From an uncultured delta proteobacterium (lineage in GTDB: Bacteria > Myxococcota_A > UBA9160 > SZUA-336), in the NCBI GenBank assembly GCA_963707945.1, contig CAVPRM010000002.1, positions 2,492,340 through 2,556,339 on the forward strand: a stretch of DNA of 64,000 nt. Reading direction: 5' to 3'. Shown here piece by piece: positions 11,701-59,928 of this stretch (position 1 is the stretch's first letter; each line of letters begins with the position of its first letter). The notes beneath the pieces were generated by a model. It was not told the origin of the DNA and did no database searches. It was given only the letters and a program-made list of their open reading frames with translations. The translations under genes and the position numbers were made by a program.

Positions 11701-14071
11701 TCATACCCGGACGAACGGCGCGGGGATCAGGGCTGGGGGGGCGCCGGCTTCAAACCGGCCCGCGATCTCGGGCGGCTGGTGAGCCCTCACCGGTTCCGCC
11801 GCGGAGTCGAACCTCTCCACCTCGACCAGAGCATGCTGTCCGGCGCACCCCTGGCTCAACCTCGACGTCCCGACATCCCCGGTCAGCACGTTGGGATTCC
11901 CGTGCAGGCACATGGCGATCTCGGCGCGCGGGTCGTCCGGATCGAACCACGCGCCCGTCGACAGCTGCACGACACGCGGCCGCACGTCCGTCGTGATTAC
12001 CGCGCCCGCCAGACAGCTCCCGCGATCGTTGAACAGCCGCACCACGTCCCCGTCCTCGATCCCGCGCGCCGACGCGTCGGACGGGTGCATCCGCACGGGC
12101 TCGCGACCGTGCACCTTCGACGCCTGGCTGTACGCGCCGCCGTCGAGCTGCCCGTGCAGCCGCGTCGCCGGATTGTTCGCGACCAGCGCCAGCGGGAACT
12201 GGGCCGCGCGCTTCGAGCCCAGCGACTCCTCGCTCGCGAGCCACGCCGCATGGCCCGGACAATCGTCGTACCCGAAGCGCGCCACCGTCTCGGAGAACAG
12301 CTCGATCTTCCCGCTCGGGGTCTTGAGCCGCTCCGCGTCGGGATCCGCGCGGAACGACGCGAACAGCACGCGCTCGGCTTCGGAGTCCGGGACCTCGATC
12401 GAGCCCTGCTCCCAGAACTGCGTCGAAGGTCGGCGCGGCGACGCCGACGTCGGCGAGCGCGTCGCGCACCCTCTCGTACAGGTGCTCGAGCCAGCCGCGC
12501 TCGTCGCGTCCCTCCGTGAACGCCTCTCGCACCTCCGGCCCGAACCGCTCCGCGAGCCCCGCGAGGATGTCGTGATCGCTCCGCGCCTCGCCCACCGGCT
12601 CGACCGCGCGCTGCATCGCGATGATCCGCGCGTCCGCCCTTCCCGAGCCGATGTCGTTGCGCTCCAGCGACGTGGTCGCCGGGAACACGAGATCCGCGTG
12701 CCGGGCCATCGGCGTCCAGTACGGCTCGTGCACGATCACGGTGTCGGGCCGGCCGAGCGCCCGGCGCAGGCGGTTCAGATCCTGGTGATGGTGGAACGGG
12801 TTGCCGCCGGCCCAGTACACCAGGCGGATGTCGGGATAGCTGAGGCTCGCGCCGTTGTAGTCGAAGCGTTCGCCCGGCCGCAGCAAGAGGTCCGCGATGC
12901 GCGCACACGGGATGAAGTCGCGCACGGCGTTGCGGCCCTCGGGCACACCGCCGGGCAGCGGGAGGTTCGCGGTGGGGCTGCCGAGGTCCCCCATCGAGCC
13001 GTAGCCGTGGCCGAAGCCGCCGCCGGGCAGGCCGATCTGGCCGAGCAGAGCAGCGAGTGAGAGCGCGGCCCAGATCGGCTGCTCGCCGTGCTGCGCGCGC
13101 TGCAGCGAATACGACACCGTGACGAGCGTGCGCCTCCGCGCCATCTCGCGCGCGAGCTCGCGCAGGTCGCGCGCCGGGATGCCCGAGCGCTGCTCGGCCC
13201 ACTCCGGCGTCTTCGCCACGCCGTCGGCCTCGCCCATGACGTACGCGATGAACTGCTTCGCGCCCGTGCAGCAGCGCTCGAGGAACACCTCGTCGTGTAG
13301 GCCTTCGCTCACCAACGCGTGCGCCAGGCCCAGCATGACGGCGACGTCCGACAGCGGGATCACCGGGTACCAGCGCGCCCCTGCCTCTGGGACCACGTCG
13401 TCGCGCAGCGGCGAGAAGTGGGCGATGCGCATGCCGCGGCGGTGCGCGTCGGCCAGGTGCCCGCGCAGCCCGTGTCGCGCCATCCCGCCCGGCGCGACGA
13501 AGGTGTTCTTGTGCGGCAGCCCGCCGAACGCGACGAGCAGCTCCGTGTGCTTGGCGATCACGTTCCAGGTCGTCGCCTTGCGGAACACGGCGGCCGAGCT
13601 CCCGACCAGGTGCGGCAGGAGGACGAGCGACGCGCCGATGCTGTAGCTGCCGCGGTGCGACGTGAAGCCGCCGATCGTGTTCAGGAAGCGGTGGAGCTGG
13701 CTCTGGCTCTGGTGGAACATGCCCGCGCTCGCCCAGCCGTACGAGCCGCCGAAGATCGCCCGGTTCCCGTGCGCGCCGCGCACGCGCGCGAGCTCCGCCG
13801 CCGCGCGGTCGAGCGCCTCGTCCCACGAGAGCTCGACGAACGAGTCACTGCCGCGGTCGCGCGTCGGCCCCGGCCCGCGCTCGAGCCAGCCGCGCCGCGC
13901 CACCGGCCGCGCGATCCGCGTGGGATGGCGCAGGCTGCCCGGCAGGTTCGCGAGCAGCGGCGACGGATCCGGATCGTGGAGCGGACGCACGGCCTCGATC
14001 TCGCCATCGCGCACGCGCACCGTGAACCCACCCCAGTGGGAGCTGTGCGTGAGCTCGCGCGCGTCCGTCAT
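11701..14071 (-). CDS. Molybdopterin oxidoreductase, DMSO-reductase family (BisC/TorZ-like, no Tat signal); one extra base near 12420
   Basis: N-terminus MTDARELTHSSHWGGFTVRVRDGEIEAVRP (ATG 14071). The frame is continuous to ...AAPTFD, then FWEQGSIEVPDSEAERVLFASFRADPDAERLKTPSGKIELFSE... continues in the frame of ORF 11701..12369. The span is 3n+1 nt long. Confidence 0.85.
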
Positions 14072-14073
14072 TC

Positions 14074-14376
14074 TTATGGGCACTCCCGCAGGCGCCCGCA
14101 CTCCATCTGAGCCTGATCCAGGCAGATGTCGACCGTCTGGTTGCAGCCGTTCACACAGAGGTCGAGTGAGACCGGCGCGTCGGGATACCTGCCCCGGCAA
14201 TCGGTGATGCAGCGGGTGGCGTCGGTATCGCACCCGAACCTCTGCAGGCAGTGCTCGCAGCGAAAATGGTCGGTGGTCGTCTGCGCGGACGCGGGGTGCG
14301 CGCCGCTCATCCAGAGAAGAAGAGCGCCGGCGATCAGCAGGAAGGCCAGCGCTCCCAGGGCTTTCGGTCGTTGCAT
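14074..14376 (-). CDS. Small secreted cysteine-rich protein (10 Cys in about 70 mature residues)
   Basis: ATG at 14376 follows AAGGAGAG. MQRPKALGALAFLLIAGALLLWMSGAHPASA|QTTTDHFRCEHCLQRFGCDTDATRCITDCRGRYPDAPVSLDLCVNGCNQTVDICLDQAQMECGRLRECP. Its stop lies 2 nt before the molybdoenzyme ATG. Confidence 0.6.
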   Translation of the reverse strand: MQRPKALGALAFLLIAGALLLWMSGAHPASAQTTTDHFRCEHCLQRFGCDTDATRCITDCRGRYPDAPVSLDLCVNGCNQTVDICLDQAQMECGRLRECP

Positions 14377-53272: not shown

Positions 53273-55615
53273 ATGGACAAGGCCGCGGAGCGCTACCGAC
53301 GCTGCGCCAACTACCTGGCCGCCGCGCAGCTCTACCTGCGTGCGAATCCGCTGCTCGAGGAGCCGCTGCGTCCCGAGCACCTGAAGCCGCGCCTGCTCGG
53401 GCACTGGGGAACGGCGCCCGGGATCAACCTGATCTACCAGCACCTGAATCGCCTGATCCTGCGCAGCGACGCGGAGCTCCTGCTCGTGACCGGGCCCGGC
53501 CACGGCGCCGCCGCGAATCTCGCGAACCTGTGGCTCGAGGGAACGCTCGCGGAGTTCTACCCGGAGCTGACGCGCGACCGCGCTGGGCTCACCCGGCTCT
53601 TCCAGCGCTTCTCCTGGCCGGGGGGATTCCCGAGCCACCTGAGCCCCGCGCTTCCCGGCGTTCTGTGCGAGGGAGGCGAGCTCGGCTACGCGCTCGCAAC
53701 CTCGTTCGGCGCGGTGCTCGACAATCCCGACCTGATCGCCGCGTGCATCGTCGGCGACGGCGAGGCCGAGACCGGGCCGACGGCCGGATCCTGGCACGCC
53801 GCGAAATTCCTGAGCCCCGCTCACGACGGCGCGGTGCTGCCGATCCTGCACCTGAACGGCTTCAAGATCGCGAACCCGACGGTGTTCGGCTGCATGGACG
53901 ACGGCGAGCTCGACGCGCTCTTCACCGGCTACGGGTATACGCCGCGCATCGTCTCGCTCTCTCAAGAGATCGACGCGGAGCTCACCACCGCGCTCGACGC
54001 ATCGCTCGCGGAGATCCGCGCCCTTCAGCGGAGCGCCCGCGAGGGCCAACCGCCCGAGCGCGCGCGCTGGCCGATGATCGTGCTGCGCACGCCGAAGGGC
54101 TGGACGGGGCCGCGCGAGATCGACGGCGTGCAGATCGAGGGGACCTTCCGCGCGCACCAGGTTCCCGCCAAGCTCGCGCGTACGAATCCGGCGCACCGCG
54201 CGGCGCTCGAGAGCTGGCTGCGCTCGTACCGGCCCGACGAGCTGTTCGATCGCGAAGGCCGGCCCGCGCCCGACATCGTCGAGCAGTGCCCGCGCGGCGC
54301 GCGCCGGATGGCGATGAATCCGCACGGCTTCGGCTGGCGCGTGCGCCGGCCGCTCGCGTTGCCGCCGCTGTCGGAGTTCGGCGTCGCCGTCGCCAGACGC
54401 GGCGACCCGATCGCCTCGGCCATGGAGGCGCTCGGCCGATACCTGCGCGAGGTGGTCGTGCTCGACCGCGAGCGCAAGACCTTCCGCATCGTCTGCCCGG
54501 ACGAGCTCGAGTCCAACCGGCTGGGCGCGGTGCTCGAGGTGACGAGCCGCCAGTTCGATTGGCCGCCGCTGCCGGGAAGCGAGGGCCTCGCGCGCGAGGG
54601 CCGCGTGCTCGAGGTGCTCTCGGAGCATCTCTGTCAGGGCTGGCTGCAGGGCTACCTGCTGACGGGCCGGCACGGGCTCTTCCCGTGCTACGAAGCGTTC
54701 CTGCCGATCGTCGACGGCATGATGAACCAGTACGCGAAGTTCCTGAAGTCGTCGCGCGAGGTGCCGTGGCGCGGCTCGATCTCGTCGCTGAACTACGTGC
54801 TCACCTCGGAGGCCTGGCGGCAGGAGCACAACGGCTACTCGCACCAGGGGCCCGGCTTCCTGAACAACTTGCTCACGAAGAAGGGACACACCTACCGGAT
54901 CTATCTGCCTCCGGACGCCAACTGTCTGCTCTGGACGATGGATCAGTGTCTGCGCACACCGGATCGCATTCATCTGGTGATCGCGGGCAAGCAGCCGATG
55001 CCGCAGTGGCTCGGTCGTGAAGAGGCCGCCGACCACTGCCGCGTGGGCGCGTCGATCTGGCGCTGGGCGAGCACGTTCGACGGCGAGGACCCGGAGCTCG
55101 TCCTCGCGGGCTGCGGCGACTCCCTCACGCTCGAGGTGATGGCCGCCGCGCAGATCCTGCGCGAGGAAGCGCCCGGCTGGCGCGTCCGCGTCGTCAACGT
55201 GACCGACCTGCTGGTGCTCGGCATTCCCGAGAAGTACCCCGGCGGGCTCACGAACGAGCGCTTCGAGCGGCTCTTCCCGCGCGGCGTCCCCGCGCTGGTG
55301 AACTTCCACGGCTACACCGCGGCGATCAAGCAGCTCTGCTGGGAGCGGCCCGAGCCGAGCCGCTTCGACGTGAACGGCTATCGCGAAGAGGGCACCACGA
55401 CCACGCCGTTCATGATGCAGATCCTGAACCGCACCAGCCGCTACCACCTCGTGATGCAGGCGGCGCAGAAGGTTGCCCGCGTGAACCCGAGCGCGGCCGC
55501 GCACGCGGAGGCGCTCGTGGTGCGCTACGAGCGGAAGATCGCCGAGCTCGCCGACTACGTCGTTCGCGAAGGGGAGGACCCGCCCGAGATCTCGGGATTC
55601 CGATGGACCCCGTGA
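53273..55615 (+). CDS. xfp: Phosphoketolase (xylulose-5-P/fructose-6-P)
   Basis: 780 aa. LLGHWGTAPG, VTGPGHGA, EGGELGYAL and IVGDGEAETGP. Confidence 0.92.
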   Translation: MDKAAERYRRCANYLAAAQLYLRANPLLEEPLRPEHLKPRLLGHWGTAPGINLIYQHLNRLILRSDAELLLVTGPGHGAAANLANLWLEGTLAEFYPELTRDRAGLTRLFQRFSWPGGFPSHLSPALPGVLCEGGELGYALATSFGAVLDNPDLIAACIVGDGEAETGPTAGSWHAAKFLSPAHDGAVLPILHLNGFKIANPTVFGCMDDGELDALFTGYGYTPRIVSLSQEIDAELTTALDASLAEIRALQRSAREGQPPERARWPMIVLRTPKGWTGPREIDGVQIEGTFRAHQVPAKLARTNPAHRAALESWLRSYRPDELFDREGRPAPDIVEQCPRGARRMAMNPHGFGWRVRRPLALPPLSEFGVAVARRGDPIASAMEALGRYLREVVVLDRERKTFRIVCPDELESNRLGAVLEVTSRQFDWPPLPGSEGLAREGRVLEVLSEHLCQGWLQGYLLTGRHGLFPCYEAFLPIVDGMMNQYAKFLKSSREVPWRGSISSLNYVLTSEAWRQEHNGYSHQGPGFLNNLLTKKGHTYRIYLPPDANCLLWTMDQCLRTPDRIHLVIAGKQPMPQWLGREEAADHCRVGASIWRWASTFDGEDPELVLAGCGDSLTLEVMAAAQILREEAPGWRVRVVNVTDLLVLGIPEKYPGGLTNERFERLFPRGVPALVNFHGYTAAIKQLCWERPEPSRFDVNGYREEGTTTTPFMMQILNRTSRYHLVMQAAQKVARVNPSAAAHAEALVVRYERKIAELADYVVREGEDPPEISGFRWTP

Positions 55616-56721
55616 TCGCCGTAGTGAACACCGGCAGCTCGAGCGTGAAGCTCGCCGCGTTCGAGCTCGCGGGCGGCGAGCTGCGCGTGCGCGCGCGTAT
55701 CGATCGCGAGCTCGCAGTGAGCGCCGGCAATCTCGAGGCGCACCTGCACGACGAGCTCGCCTCGTTCGCGCGCGCGCTCGGGGCCTCGCCGAGCGCGGTC
55801 GCGCACCGGGTCGTTCACGGCGGCCTCGAAGCGCACAGCCCGGTCGAGCTCACGCCCGACGTCGAGCGCCTGCTCGAGGCGCTCGTGCCGCTCGCGCCAC
55901 TGCACCAGCCAGCGGCGCTCGCGGGCATTCGCGCCGCGCGCCGGGTGTATCCGCGCGCGCGTCAGCTCGCGTTCTTCGACACCGCCTTCCACGCTGCGCG
56001 CTCGCCGGCCTCGCTCGCGTATCCGCTCCCCGCCGAGCTGGCAGGGCGCGAGCTGCACCGCTTCGGCTTTCACGGCCTCGCGCACGCGTCGCTCCTCGAG
56101 CAGACCGCGCGCGCCGTGGGCCGCGCGCCCGAGCAGAGCAGCGCCGTCACGCTGCAGCTCGGCCACGGTTGCTCGGCCTGCGCGATCCGCGACGGCCGCT
56201 CGCTCGAGACCTCGATGGGCTTCTCGCCGCTCGGCGGCCTGACGATGCCGGCACGCTCGGGGGATCTCGATCCAGGCGTGCTCCTCCACCTGCTGCGCGG
56301 CGGCCACGGCGCCGCGGAGCTCGAGGAGATCCTCTACGAGCGGTCGGGGCTGCTCGCGCTCACGGGGAGCGCGGACGTTCGCGTGATCGAGAAGCGCGCC
56401 GCCGGCGGCGAAGCGCGCGCCGAGCTCGGCCTCGCGGTCTTCGCTCGCGCGATCATCGCCACGGTCGGCGCCTACTTCACGCTGCTCGACGGCGACGGCG
56501 CGCTCGTCTTCGGGGGCGGGATCGGCACGGGCTCGGCCGAAGTCCGCGCGCGCGTGTGCGCGGGCCTGCGCGCCTGGAACGTGCACCTCGACCCGACCCG
56601 GAACGCGGCTGGCGCGAGCGGAACCATCCATCGCCCCGGCAGCCGGCCTGTGTTCTGCTTCACGACGGACGAGGAAGGCTGGATGGCCCGGGCTTGCGTG
56701 CCGGAGCTCACGACCGGATGA
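55603..56721 (+). CDS. ackA: Acetate kinase
   Basis: IAVVNTGSSSVKLAAFEL, HRVVHGG, AFFDTAFH and FGFHGLAH. Overlaps the xfp 3' end by 13 nt. Confidence 0.85.
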   Translation: MDPVIAVVNTGSSSVKLAAFELAGGELRVRARIDRELAVSAGNLEAHLHDELASFARALGASPSAVAHRVVHGGLEAHSPVELTPDVERLLEALVPLAPLHQPAALAGIRAARRVYPRARQLAFFDTAFHAARSPASLAYPLPAELAGRELHRFGFHGLAHASLLEQTARAVGRAPEQSSAVTLQLGHGCSACAIRDGRSLETSMGFSPLGGLTMPARSGDLDPGVLLHLLRGGHGAAELEEILYERSGLLALTGSADVRVIEKRAAGGEARAELGLAVFARAIIATVGAYFTLLDGDGALVFGGGIGTGSAEVRARVCAGLRAWNVHLDPTRNAAGASGTIHRPGSRPVFCFTTDEEGWMARACVPELTTG

Positions 56722-56959
56722 GCCCGACCATCAGCGACGCGGCAGCGCCCGGCGCGGCGCCGCCGGCGTGGATGGTCTGCTCGCGAAATCGCGGCGCGGG
56801 GCGAAGTGGTAGCAGGCCGAGGCGGCGAGGCCCGACGCGAGCACGGCGAAGGCGAGCTCCTGCGACATGCGAGAACGAATCGCCGCTCGAGGCCTCGCTC
56901 GCGAGTAGGCAAAAGGTCAATGGTCGACGGATTCTGGCCAGGCGCGGCACAATGGCTTC

Positions 56960-57929
56960 ATGCACCGCGTGGTGATCGTGGCGACCGACGGCGTGATCCC
57001 CTTCGACCTGGCGACGCCTTACGAGGTGTTCGCGAGCGTGCGGCTGCGCGATGGAAGCTGCGGCTATCGGGTGCGCGTGTGCGGCACCGCGAAGGAGGTC
57101 GACGCGGGCGGATTCCGCATGAAGCTCCGCTACGGGCTCGACGAGCTCGGGCGCGCGGACACGATCGTGTTGGCCGGGGTCGGGGATCTCGGCGCGCCGG
57201 TGCCGGAGACTGCTGCTCCGCGCCGTGCGCCGCGCTGCGGCGCGCGGGGTGCGGGTGGCTTCGACCTGCAGCGGCGCGTTCCTGTTCGCGGCGACCGGGC
57301 TCCTCGACGGACGGCGCGCGACGACCCACTGGCGGGCGGCACCCGAGCTCGCGCGGCGCTACCCGGAGGTTCACGTCGACCCCGACGTGCTCTACGTGGA
57401 CGAGGGTCAGTTCCTCACCTCGGCCGGTGCGGCGGCCGCGTTCGATCTCTGCCTGCACATGGTGCGGCGCGACTACGGATCCGAGGCCGCCGTCGCCGCG
57501 GCGCGCGCGTCGGTCATGCCGCTCGAGCGCGACGGCGGACAGTCCCAGTTCATCACGCACGCGCCGCCGACTCCCGACGGCGCCTCCCTCTCGCCGCTGC
57601 TCGCGTGGCTCGAGGGGAACCTGCACGCGCCGCTCACGCTGGACGCGATCGCGAAGCGCGCCGCCGCGAGCGTGCGCAGCTTGAACCGGCGCTTCCGCGA
57701 TCAGACCGGGACCACGCCGCTCCAGTGGCTGCTGCGCGCCCGCGTGCGGCGCGCGCAACTCCTGCTCGAGACCACTGCGCATTCGGTCGACCGGATTGCC
57801 GCGACCGCCGGCTTCGGCTCGGCCACGAGCCTCCGCGAGCACTTCCGCCGGGTCGTGGCCACCAGCCCGCAGGCGTATCGTCGCGCGTTCCGCAGCCGCT
57901 CCCGCCCGCGTGCGCCCCGTCACGGGTGA
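56960..57929 (+). CDS. GlxA-family regulator (DJ-1/PfpI domain + AraC HTH); one extra base at about 57209
   Basis: MHRVVIVATDGVIPFDLATPYEVF...IVLAGVGDLGAPVPE, then LLLRAVRRAAARGVRVASTCSGAFLFAATGLLDGRRATTHW...LDAIAKRAAASVRSLNRRFRDQTGTTPLQWLL... continues in the frame of ORF 57225..57929. The span is 3n+1 nt long. Confidence 0.8.
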
Positions 57930-58008
57930 AACCAAAACGGGGATGCAACGTACTGTCTGGTGGCCTCTGCGCAGTCGCGCACGACCACTTCGAGGCCAGG
58001 AGGACGGA

Positions 58009-58281
58009 ATGGCGCGTTCGATGCTCGGAATTCTGGCCGCGGGTGCGGTCGCGAGTCTGCTCGCCGGCGGGGCGTTCGCCGCGGACGACAAGATGGGCGG
58101 CGGCATGGGCGGCATGGACGCCAAGGCCTGCTACCGCTCGCACTGCGGCAAGAGCGTGAGCGGCTACGAAGGCAAGTGCGGCGGCACCATGATCGATCAG
58201 CTCAAGACCGAGAAGGCGTGCACGGACGCCGGCGGCGCCTGGGCCACGGCCGACGAAGCGAAGAAGTTCGAAAAGAAGTGA
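58009..58281 (+). CDS. Candidate RiPP precursor: Sec-exported, Met/Gly-rich, 4-Cys peptide with EGKCG motif (HvfA/bufferin-like)
   Basis: ATG 58009 lies 5-6 nt after AGGAGGA. MARSMLGILAAGAVASLLAGGAFA|ADDKMGGGMGGMDAKACYRSHCGKSVSGYEGKCGGTMIDQLKTEKACTDAGGAWATADEAKKFEKK. It sits 25 nt upstream of the MNIO gene. Confidence 0.65.
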   Translation: MARSMLGILAAGAVASLLAGGAFAADDKMGGGMGGMDAKACYRSHCGKSVSGYEGKCGGTMIDQLKTEKACTDAGGAWATADEAKKFEKK

Positions 58282-58306
58282 AGAGCTGAGTTCTCGGCCG
58301 CTCCGC

Positions 58307-59928
58307 ATGGCGAACCCACGCTTCGGCGTCGGCTTCCGCACGCCCCACCTCGGAGCGCTGCTCGTCGCCGAGCGGCCGCCGGAGTGGCTCGAGCTCGTGA
58401 CCGAGAACTTCCTCGGCAAGGGCGGCGCGCAGCGCACGCTGCTCGCGCGCGTTTGCGAGCGGGCGCCGGTGGCGCTGCACGGCGTCTCTCTGTCGATTGC
58501 GGGCACCGACCCACTCGACCTGGACTACCTGCGCGAGCTGCGCGCGCTCGCGGACGCGGTGCGGCCCGAGTTCGTGAGCGACCACCTGGCGTGGACGGGG
58601 CTCGGCGGCCGCGAGTCGCACGATCTCCTGCCGGTCGCACTGACCCGCGACGTGCTCGACCACGTCGCCGAGCGCGTCGCGCGCGTGCAAGATGCGCTCG
58701 GCCGCCGCATCCTGCTCGAGAACACGACGGTCTACGTGGCGTTCCGCGCCGACGAGATGAGCGAGGCCGAGCTCTTGCGCGCGCTCTGCGAGCGCACCGG
58801 TTGCGGCGTGCTGCTCGACGTGAACAATCTCTACGTGAACTCCGAGAACCTCGGCGTCGACCCGCGCGCGTACCTGGCGGCGCTCCCGCGAGCCGGGGTC
58901 GGCTACATGCACCTGGCCGGCCACGCGCGGCTCGCCGACGTGCGCATCGACACGCACGACGCCGACGTGCCCGACCCGGTGTGGGACCTGTACGCAGCCG
59001 CGGTGCGCCGCTTCCCCGACGCCGGCGCGATCGTCGAGCGCGACGACAAGCTGCCGCCGTTCGCGGATCTGTGTCGCGAGGCGGAGGCCGCGCAGCTGTG
59101 GCACGCGCACGAGCGCCTCCACGCCTGCGAGGAGCCCGTCCGCGGGCCGGCCGCGGCGGGCCTTCGCCCGCACGGCTCGAAATCGTGGCACGACCTGCAG
59201 TGCGCGCTCTGGAGCCGGGTCGTCGACGAACCGGCCGCCGCGGACGTCGAGCCGCTGTTCGCGGACGACCGCCCCGTGCGCGCCGCACGCGGGCTGCGGG
59301 TGTACGGCGACGCCTACGGTGAGAACCTGCGCCGCGCGCTCGCCACGAACTTCCCGGCGCTCGCACGCGTGTTGTCGGCGAGCGAGTTCGCCGACCTCGC
59401 CGCCGCCTACGTGCGCGCGCACCCGCCGCGCGGACGCGACTACGTCGGGCTGGGCGCCGAGCTGACGGGCTTCCTCCAGACGCATCCGCAGCCGAGCGCG
59501 CTGGCCGACCTGGCGGCGCTCGAACAGGCGCAGCTCGAGGTGCAGGACGCGCCGGACGAGACCGTGCTCGTGCACGCCAGAGGACGCTCGCGGCGATCCC
59601 GGCCGAGAAGTGGGCCGGCGCGCGCTTCGTCTTCGCGCGGGCGCTGCGGCTGGTTCGCACGGCCCACGACGTGCTCCCGGTCGTGCGAGGCGAGTCGGCG
59701 GCGCGGCCCCGGCGCGAGGAGGTCTGCTATCGGGTCGAGCGCCGCATCAGCGGCGTGCACGCGGAACGCCTGAACGCGCTGGACGCGGCGCTCCTGGGAG
59801 CGCTCGCGGCGGGCGAGAGCTTCGCCGACGCGTGCGCGTCGCGCGGCGAGCCCGAGTGCGCGCAAGCAGCCGCGGCTCTGCTCCTGCGCGCGAGCTCGCT
59901 CGGCCTTCTCGCTGCCCTGCAGCTCTAG
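58307..59928 (+). CDS. Fused MNIO (DUF692) - DUF2063 RiPP maturase; one base missing near 59580
   Basis: DUF692 hallmarks GVGFRTPH, WLELVTENF, LHGVSLSIAG, VSDHLAW, HDLLPVA, ILLENTTVY, GCGVLLDVNNLYVN, MHLAGH, IDTHD and VERDD. Then DUF2063-like RGLRVYGDAYGENLRRALATNFPAL...FADLAAAYVRAHPP. The tail RTLAAIPAEKWAGARFVFARALRLVRTAHDVLPVVRG...LGLLAALQL* is in the frame of ORF 59671..59928. The span is 3n+2 nt long. Confidence 0.85.

Follow-up and report, generated by a model that had tools for sequence, protein, structure and literature searches.

The 64,000-nucleotide stretch of DNA analysed here (the window; positions 2,492,340 to 2,556,339 of contig CAVPRM010000002.1, from an uncultured delta proteobacterium) carries a two-gene locus in which a short open reading frame (ORF) for a cysteine-containing peptide precursor with a predicted Sec signal stands directly 5' of a gene for a single-chain maturase, a BufB-type MNIO enzyme fused to a BufC-type partner protein. 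The locus is a real, conserved variant of the bufferin/captophorin theme; it is marked by the natural B–C fusion, the two-gene cluster, and a four-cysteine precursor family that current models miss. The features of the locus, all on the forward strand, are as follows:

57998-58003 (+): ribosome-binding site AGGAGG, 5 nucleotides 5' of the precursor ATG, read directly from the sequence
58009..58281 (+): precursor ORF, 90 residues, MARSMLGILAAGAVASLLAGGAFAADDKMGGGMGGMDAKACYRSHCGKSVSGYEGKCGGTMIDQLKTEKACTDAGGAWATADEAKKFEKK
58009..58080 (+): predicted Sec signal peptide, residues 1-24, MARSMLGILAAGAVASLLAGGAFA, with cleavage predicted after AFA
58081..58281 (+): precursor core, residues 25-90, and stop codon; a Met-rich stretch, then the Cys-bearing region
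58307..59573 (+): fused maturase gene up to the frameshift, in frame (MNIO/BufB domain, linker, DUF2063 N-domain)
58322-59095 (+): MNIO/BufB domain, maturase residues 6-263; PF05114, E=2e-94, model positions 2-259 of 263
59249-59476 (+): DUF2063 N-domain of the partner, residues 315-390; PF09836, E=2.3e-14, 53.9 bits against a cutoff of 27.2
59574..59584 (+): frameshift patch; compared with the closest relative, one A is inserted at 59574 and another at 59584, from the blastn indel list
59585..59928 (+): C-terminal partner part (RRE-like/NGO1945_C-type), in the other frame, ending in TAG at 59926-59928; aligns to the C-terminus of intact homologues

Much of what an earlier note had described at this locus stands: the 90-residue ORF with its strong ribosome-binding site, its four cysteines, and a signal sequence recognizable by inspection; the start of the next gene, an ATG at 58307, 25 nucleotides 3' of the precursor ORF; and, in the translation of that gene, all nine of the MNIO hallmark motifs that had been quoted. 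The profile search that the note had set beforehand as a check returned both DUF692 and DUF2063 at the E-values listed above, and the proposed combination of a precursor, an MNIO enzyme, and a DUF2063-type partner is borne out by both enzyme domains and by a BufB score above the model's cutoff. By contrast, the 540-codon gene of the note is not one ORF, since its 1622-nucleotide span holds two single-A insertions. Thus, the statement that B and C are one polypeptide is correct for the homologues of the family but not for the window as given, in which the gene is frameshifted.

A conserved precursor–maturase gene pair

The identity of the maturase can be read from several profiles. Against the NCBIfam BufB equivalog NF050167 (cutoff 310 bits), the window's protein scores 320.9 bits and P0001, its closest intact homologue, 321.1 bits; the HvfB model NF003818 gives 239.3 bits, under its 360-bit cutoff, the MbnB model 69 bits against a cutoff of 325, and ApyH and ChrH likewise stay under their cutoffs. 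The MNIO half is 44–50% identical to BufB2-type enzymes and 41% identical to the BufB1 type, and it shares with the BufB2 types the tetrapeptide ERDD, which is ERDG in the BufB1 type and ERDF in the DUF692 protein 3BWW. Nine residues (H58, H93, E138, D171, N174, H202, D215, H217, and E244) occur in the window and do not vary across 60 fused homologues, and we take this set of His, Asp, Glu, and Asn residues to match the iron ligands of MbnB.

The MNIO half is joined by a linker of ∼30–50 residues to the partner half, over which the NCBIfam HvfC model spans residues 325-513 of P0001 (50.5 bits against a cutoff of 142); additionally, in BLASTP a BufC2-type partner encoded on its own aligns over its residues 32-255 with maturase residues 322-533 (E=3e-17). 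In light of these two alignments, the C-terminal half reads as a whole partner, comprising DUF2063 and a part resembling a recognition element (RRE) of ribosomally made, post-translationally modified peptides (RiPPs), and not as a fragment. PF22106 (NGO1945_C) was matched in 11 of 60 fused homologues at E<0.1. An AlphaFold2 model of intact P0001 is predicted with high confidence (predicted local distance difference test score, pLDDT, 93.3; predicted template modelling score, pTM, 0.90) as one compact two-domain body, with lower confidence confined to the linker at about residues 270-295 and with a beta-sheet and helices at residues 438-537. The top Foldseek matches of this fused model are 3BWW, TglH, and MbnB, at probability 1.00, on which its N-domain superposes; such TIM-barrel matches dominate the whole-protein search. 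Fusion is general in the family: among the best 120 homologues listed (437–622 residues), all carry PF05114 and PF09836, and individual scans of the 60 aligned homologues found both domains in every one.

What does this maturase act on? The precursor begins with a Sec-like N-terminus, recognized by inspection from its positive n-region (MARS), hydrophobic core, and AFA|A junction, and the n- and h-regions are kept across 54 aligned precursor homologues; GGAGG-type sites are visible 5' of the precursor start in relatives. The core reads, in order, DDKMGGGMGGMD, C41-Y-R-x2-C46-G-K ... E-G-K-C57-G-G ... C71-x-D-A-G-G-A-W78, such that four cysteines (C41, C46, C57, and C71) are spaced C-x4-C-x10-C-x13-C. 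An AlphaFold2 model of the precursor predicts a small alpha/beta domain, with pLDDT 65 overall and 73-86 in the core. The earlier note had placed the precursor outside the EGKCG pattern, which is correct in that there are no repeats; nonetheless, the peptide has exactly one canonical EGKCG motif (E54–G58, with C57 as its Cys), and this motif is conserved in the precursor family. The Met-rich stretch DDKMGGGMGGMD (58081-58120, residues 25-37), which opens the predicted mature peptide, is limited to the window's closest relatives, and other family members have EEAAGS-type spacers in its place. This stretch presumably recalls the Met-rich Cu(I) motifs of periplasmic copper proteins.

The precursor family, as gathered by a word-indexed search, comprises 120 clusters at 90% identity with lengths of 55–124 residues, mostly 83–91, and there is no Pfam domain in any of the 120. 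In the 54-member alignment, C41, Y42, R43, C46, S49, C57, G58, G59, C71, A74, W78, and T80 are invariant, and the consensus is KACYRTxCGKSVKGHEGKCGGTKVD....EKxCxDAGGAWTT. A profile of the family run against 1.84 billion representative proteins gave just 24 matches at E<=0.001. Judged by sequence, then, this is a tight family with no detectable membership in DUF2282: the precursor has no Pfam match at E<=1, including BufA1/DUF2282 (PF10048), and no DUF2282 look-alikes occur among the inspected proteins of the 24 profile matches. NCBIfam likewise yields no match to the window precursor, including the HvfA-type/Buf_EGKCG models, and neither the window precursor nor the family member P0199 matches the BufA2 model NF050166 (cutoff 60 bits). 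The searches against the DUF2282, HvfA, and BufA models that the earlier note had called for thus leave the precursor unclassified, as had been claimed. BufA2 (BUF_6/12Cys) had been left out of the precursor comparison in that note, though it is the class most resembled by both enzyme and precursor. Reference BufA2 sequences (Novosphingobium, Asticcacaulis, and Pseudomonas plasmids) are visibly similar to the family at both ends, with ...ACYG..C... and ...C.KAGG..., a similarity that is statistically weak; hhalign of the family against a 40-sequence BufA2 alignment joins 24 C-terminal columns at a probability of 7%, and the distant profile matches P0257 and P0256 reach 25 and 16 bits, respectively, with the BufA2 model, under its 60-bit cutoff. 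A sequence-profile search of the PDB with the precursor returned nothing at E<=10, and Foldseek of its AlphaFold2 model nothing below E=9. One apparent relative, P0245 (912 residues), was rejected as a low-complexity match to SCGGT repeats. Taken together, the family reads from its sequence as a remote, shortened offshoot of the bufferin precursors, outside BufA1, BufA2, and HvfA. Since current Pfam and NCBIfam models miss it, such loci will be under-called in genome mining.

The pairing of the two genes was followed in 21 loci, five of them reached via the enzyme and sixteen via the precursor in species-representative genomes, with two contigs common to both sets. All sampled loci come from metagenome-assembled genomes (MAGs), mostly of Myxococcota or delta-proteobacterium assignment, with a few Spirochaetales and one Binatia. 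In 19 of the 21, the precursor is followed directly 3', on the same strand and across gaps of ∼25–110 nucleotides, by a single continuous fused match; the two exceptions are L016, which holds only the first ∼60 enzyme residues before the available sequence ends, and L020, which has an interrupted enzyme copy. One MAG, SOY_38_metabat_69, contributes two precursor loci, L013 (JANNKU010000141) and L016 (JANNKU010000034). The distant four-Cys precursors P0256, whose MAG carries the label Proteobacteria, and P0257, whose contig is AT-rich, also stand 5' of fused MNIO-DUF2063 genes (L022-L024, 6001-8114; L025, 1899-3263), which places the natural fusion outside the Myxococcota-type clade as well.

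No other conserved neighbour is found across the 21 loci, the flanks of which differ in every clade, and we therefore regard the unit as two genes. A conserved third gene was considered and rejected; the large ORFs without annotation that lie downstream in L002 and in L022 share no relationship. As the earlier note had stated, DoxX is absent: tblastn with DoxX, NrsF, and a SigF-type sigma factor found none of the three in the window, and in the 21 loci the sole match was a sigma gene in L015. The GlxA/AraC-type gene that the note had listed as adjacent is indeed present (DJ-1_PfpI plus HTH_18), but it adjoins the precursor only in the window and in L001, the closest relative, and for this reason it is probably unrelated to the locus. 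In L002, a multicopper oxidase gene (12864-14315, minus strand) lies ∼3 kb 3' of the fused maturase with a LysR-type regulator between; it is the sole copper-related neighbour seen in any of the loci. The off-consensus architecture that had been proposed is therefore real with respect to the fusion, the absence of DoxX, and the unclassified precursor, but these are features of the whole family and not quirks of the window.

Reading frame and promoter

The maturase gene of the window spans 58307..59928, or 1622 nucleotides, which is no multiple of 3. From 58307, the ORF keeps to the conserved frame until about codon 422 and then, out of frame, reaches a stop at 59773. The closest relative encodes P0001, of 538 residues, on a 2.9-Mb metagenome contig (L001), where the locus is 98% identical and the gene order is that of the window. 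When both extra A's are deleted, the window's gene opens into a 539-residue protein that is identical to P0001 at 516 of 539 positions (96%), and the repaired stretch reads VPPEALAAIPAEKW, matching the homologue.

Is the break real, or does it stem from the assembly? The GlxA/AraC-type gene (56960-57929, plus strand) is split in the same manner, by an extra T at 57211, the removal of which gives a 322-residue protein as in L001. For its part, L001 has ∼17 single-base indels within genes that the window carries unbroken, and its phosphoketolase (XFP) gene is called in five pieces as a result of many 1-nucleotide indels; these two observations indicate that the assemblies are indel-prone. Assembly or consensus error is therefore the more likely origin of the two 1-nucleotide insertions, rather than true inactivation, given that the GlxA-type gene is broken alike and L001 has single-base indels of its own. 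Programmed frameshifting was also considered and rejected: L001, at 98% identity, lacks both insertions, the other fused homologues that were examined are encoded in single ORFs, and a slippery-site logic is not in evidence. Further upstream in the window, a phosphoketolase (XFP, 780 residues) and acetate kinase (372 residues) pair at 53273-56721 (plus strand; 2941-6401 in L001) is intact in both genes. Between acetate kinase and the GlxA-type gene, the window has a 32-nucleotide insertion relative to L001 (56728-56759) and small indels at 56785-56797.

The sequence just 5' of the precursor adds a candidate regulatory element of the extracytoplasmic function (ECF) sigma type:

57927-57954 (+): ECF-sigma-type promoter-like motif TGAAAC-N16-CGTACT, with TGAAAC at 57927-57932 and CGTACT at 57949-57954

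Its -35 block overlaps the TGA stop of the GlxA-type gene. The pattern TGAAAC-N15-17-CGTA has its sole match in the 64 kb here, with 0.01 expected, and a regular expression locates a similar two-block motif 68-91 nucleotides 5' of the precursor start in 14 of 20 loci (∼0.1 expected in shuffles), to which inspection by eye adds 4 more; the upstream genes of these relatives are unrelated. The motif comes in two flavours, TGAAAC...CGTAC and GTxACC...CATCC, and we assume a resemblance to ECF-sigma promoters such as that of Bacillus subtilis sigma-W (TGAAAC-N16-CGTA). In L015 (4376-5890), an ORF reading as an ECF sigma lies 5' of the precursor, followed by ZAS-type (HxxxCxxC) anti-sigma-like and GlcG/HbpS-like genes, these labels deriving from a weak tblastn match (E=2e-4) and a reading of the translations. 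The SigF regulon of Caulobacter includes bufferin operons (PMC11626156). For the locus described here we consider it likely, as a lead from the sequence, that an ECF sigma whose gene lies elsewhere is in control. The earlier note had reported no adjacent sigma/anti-sigma gene, and tblastn found none in the window, but sigma control may operate all the same, as there is an ECF-type motif upstream. Scans for sigma-70 promoters and intrinsic terminators around the locus found none, and Rfam gave only sub-threshold chance matches there. Several loci have a hairpin just 5' of the ribosome-binding site (window 57961-57998; L006 5968-5985; L009 5970-5987), with stems GGCCUC...GAGGCC in the window and CCUCCA...UGGAGG in the others; the leader hairpin of the window is no better than shuffles (z=-0.93), and L006, L007, and L009 have z of about -2 to -2.5.

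A proposed route to a copper-binding peptide and its alternatives

We consider it probable, if well short of certain, that the locus is a minimal two-gene RiPP operon of the bufferin/captophorin type that makes a periplasmic, copper-binding 5-thiooxazole peptide. Transcription would start at the ECF-sigma-type motif (57927-57954) with a sigma factor encoded elsewhere, and the Sec signal peptide of the 90-residue precursor would probably double as its recognition element. The second gene would supply a natural single-chain BufB–BufC, with the MNIO enzyme N-terminal, the linker between, and the DUF2063 plus RRE-like partner C-terminal. By analogy to BufBC, HvfBC, and FonBC, the partner half would dock the precursor in the cytoplasm and the MNIO half would oxidize cysteines to 5-thiooxazoles, a four-electron step that should cost 4 Da per Cys. 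The likeliest targets would be the two Cys-Gly sites, C57 (in EGKCG) and C46 (in C-G-K), and C41 and C71 might form a disulfide after export, as does the outer Cys pair of bufferin 1. The ∼66-residue peptide would be exported by Sec with removal of the signal peptide and would buffer periplasmic copper; the Met-rich N-terminal stretch of the window's subclade would fit the handling of Cu(I), with copper as the presumptive metal.

Several published observations are consistent with this proposal. Cys-Gly dyads and EGKCG are the preferred 5-thiooxazole sites of FonBC (PMC13097082), and, in Antoine et al. 2025, the presence of a Sec signal on precursors correlates with partners of the PME1 type and with products of the bufferin type (PMC12452194). 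In the locus described here, an MNIO enzyme, a PME1-type partner, and a Cys-rich precursor all occur together, the first two fused, which is the gene content of captophorin loci. On the other side of the balance, for this family the proposal draws on sequence and predicted structure, and MNIOs do several unrelated chemistries, such that a 5-thiooxazole need not be the outcome. As the window stands, the reading frame of the maturase gene is broken; the BufB score clears its cutoff only narrowly (320.9 against 310 bits), the HvfC-type score of 38-50 bits is far under 142 bits, and the precursor fails every curated bufferin or oxazolin model, with weak profile–profile similarity to BufA2. The enzyme has Asp where EGKCG-processing enzymes have Phe, and thus the EGKCG site may not be the target: substrate class has been tied to this ERDx position, Phe denoting the Lys-Cys (EGKCG) class and Asp the Cys-Lys (BufA2) class (Gadgil et al. 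2026, PMC13097082). In addition, no copper gene is consistently linked to the locus, and the promoter patterns were drawn up once the data had been seen, which makes the ECF motif a lead and not proof.

Three other explanations must be weighed against the bufferin/captophorin-type operon, and of these the one that concerns us most, while still unlikely, is that the window holds a dead copy: the insertions would be real, and the organism would make at most an unmodified small Cys-rich periplasmic peptide. The frame is indeed broken at 59574/59584 as given, and the extra T at 57211 shows that the neighbouring GlxA-type gene is frameshifted too, but without the two A's the local sequence encodes the homologue's VPPEALAAIP exactly, the remaining ∼115 codons run without a stop or further shift to the same end as in L001, and two independent 1-nucleotide insertions 10 nucleotides apart look more like a local consensus error than like decay. 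The single-base indels of the sister assembly, in genes intact in the window, point in the same direction, to error-prone assemblies. We regard it as decidedly less probable that the pair is a genuine MNIO RiPP system with a modification or role that is not bufferin-like, such as another oxidation of Cys or backbone, another metal, redox chemistry, or signalling. The diversity of MNIO chemistry (PMC12452194) leaves room for such an outcome, as do a precursor that matches no bufferin or oxazolin model, the isolation of its family (24 representatives among 1.84 billion proteins), the absence from 21 of 21 loci of DoxX, which is frequent in bufferin clusters, and neighbour genes without a consistent copper signal. 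Nevertheless, 5-thiooxazoles are described as the products of every characterized system in which an MNIO with a DUF2063-type (PME1) partner acts on a precursor rich in Cys (PMC13097082); moreover, the enzyme lies above the BufB equivalog cutoff, and the conserved EGKCG and C-G sites fit known 5-thiooxazole target contexts.

Least probable by far, in our judgment, is that the small ORF encodes an unrelated secreted Cys-rich protein and that the fused enzyme acts on some other substrate. Such a view could appeal to a precursor without family annotation and to a pairing that is made on genes alone; it would have to accommodate a same-strand adjacency that persists in 19 of 21 loci despite otherwise unrelated flanks and that recurs in distant lineages of differing G+C content, and four cysteines and an EGKCG motif that are invariant or nearly so.

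Significance and relation to known systems

Single-chain MNIO–partner maturases with their own four-Cys precursors could tentatively be regarded as a distinct, widespread bufferin-like lineage, and as a new subclass if the fusion proves mechanistically different, although we hold this only as a possibility on the doubtful side. Such a mechanistic difference, if true, could take the form of an obligate 1:1 complex, a different selection of cysteines, or another product chemistry or metal preference, and the family would offer a ready-made, naturally stable single-polypeptide system for structural and spectroscopic work on MNIOs. Most of its known members come from uncultured bacteria of the Myxococcota type, others from two or more further lineages, and no mention of it was found in the published surveys to the extent that they were accessible. 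In the accessible part of Antoine et al. 2025, which catalogues Buf1, Buf2, EGKCG, and CxxxxC precursors together with 776 unclassified small signal-peptide ORFs and defines PME-type 1 partners, we found no mention of MNIO-DUF2063 fusions (PMC12452194). Gadgil et al. 2026, who unify MNIO-plus-PME1 products as 5-thiooxazole "captophorins", mention no natural fusion in text or supplement (PMC13097082). For the ten NCBI-sourced family members that were looked up, no NCBI protein accessions are recorded, which may explain how surveys of the NCBI protein database could have missed the family.

MNIO enzymes need a partner protein, and the weak association of B with C has hampered mechanistic work. 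In response, an artificial HvfB–HvfC fusion was made to obtain active, stoichiometric enzyme (bioRxiv 10.64898/2026.07.17.739211). Nature made a B–C fusion of the same order repeatedly and stably, together with a short, folded four-Cys substrate, which offers a simple system for asking how MNIOs choose cysteines and build copper-binding thiooxazoles. The bufferin/captophorin class would, additionally, be extended into uncultured soil Myxococcota.

Among the already characterized systems, the bufferin 2 system of Caulobacter vibrioides, BufA2-BufB2-BufC2, usually with DoxX (Leprevost et al. 2024, PMC11626156; NF050166/NF050167), is similar in many respects. Both have a Sec-signal Cys-rich precursor directly 5' of the MNIO gene, ERDD in an MNIO half at the identity to BufB2-type enzymes given above, and a partner half that aligns along the whole of BufC2; the precursors have in common A-C-Y close to the first Cys and, at the final one, C-x2-3-(A)GG. 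Unlike bufferin 2, the system described here has B and C in one polypeptide, no DoxX, and no adjacent sigma/NrsF pair in the window, and its precursor has four cysteines versus six in BufA2 and no repeated C-K-G units. The HvfABC/FonABC oxazolin/fontiphorin systems (Gadgil et al. 2026, PMC13097082) likewise combine an MNIO enzyme, a PME1-type partner, and a Cys-rich precursor, and their repeated unit, which they convert to 5-thiooxazole, is the exact EGKCG 5-mer found here. In contrast to their many repeats, there is one EGKCG here; the HvfB score is 239 versus 360 bits, and the Asp of ERDD stands where Lys-Cys-class enzymes have Phe (ERDF, as in 3BWW).

The CxxxxC precursor family has in common with ours a signal peptide, C-x4-C, and an adjacent MNIO gene (Antoine et al. 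2025, PMC12452194). Its clusters have separate DUF2063 and DoxX genes, and 54% of them have Lactamase_B_2, none of which applies here; its members are listed largely under RefSeq WP_ accessions (PMC12452194). Methanobactin biosynthesis by MbnABC is related through the MNIO fold, the metal-site residues, a partner that presents the leader, and the oxidation of Cys to a copper-binding heterocycle. It differs in that MbnC is another type of partner, methanobactin precursors have a leader peptide instead of a Sec signal, and methanobactin itself is a chalkophore, secreted to take up copper, unlike the periplasmic peptide that we propose. The engineered HvfB–HvfC fusion has the same order of an N-terminal MNIO and a C-terminal partner; this fusion is active and outperforms the co-expressed pair, and the only systems that its report lists as departing naturally from the two-protein rule are MovX and ChrH (bioRxiv 10.64898/2026.07.17.739211). 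The engineered enzyme is man-made and has no linker, whereas the fused maturase described here is natural, joins its halves by a linker of ∼30–50 residues, and is found in at least 120 database proteins.

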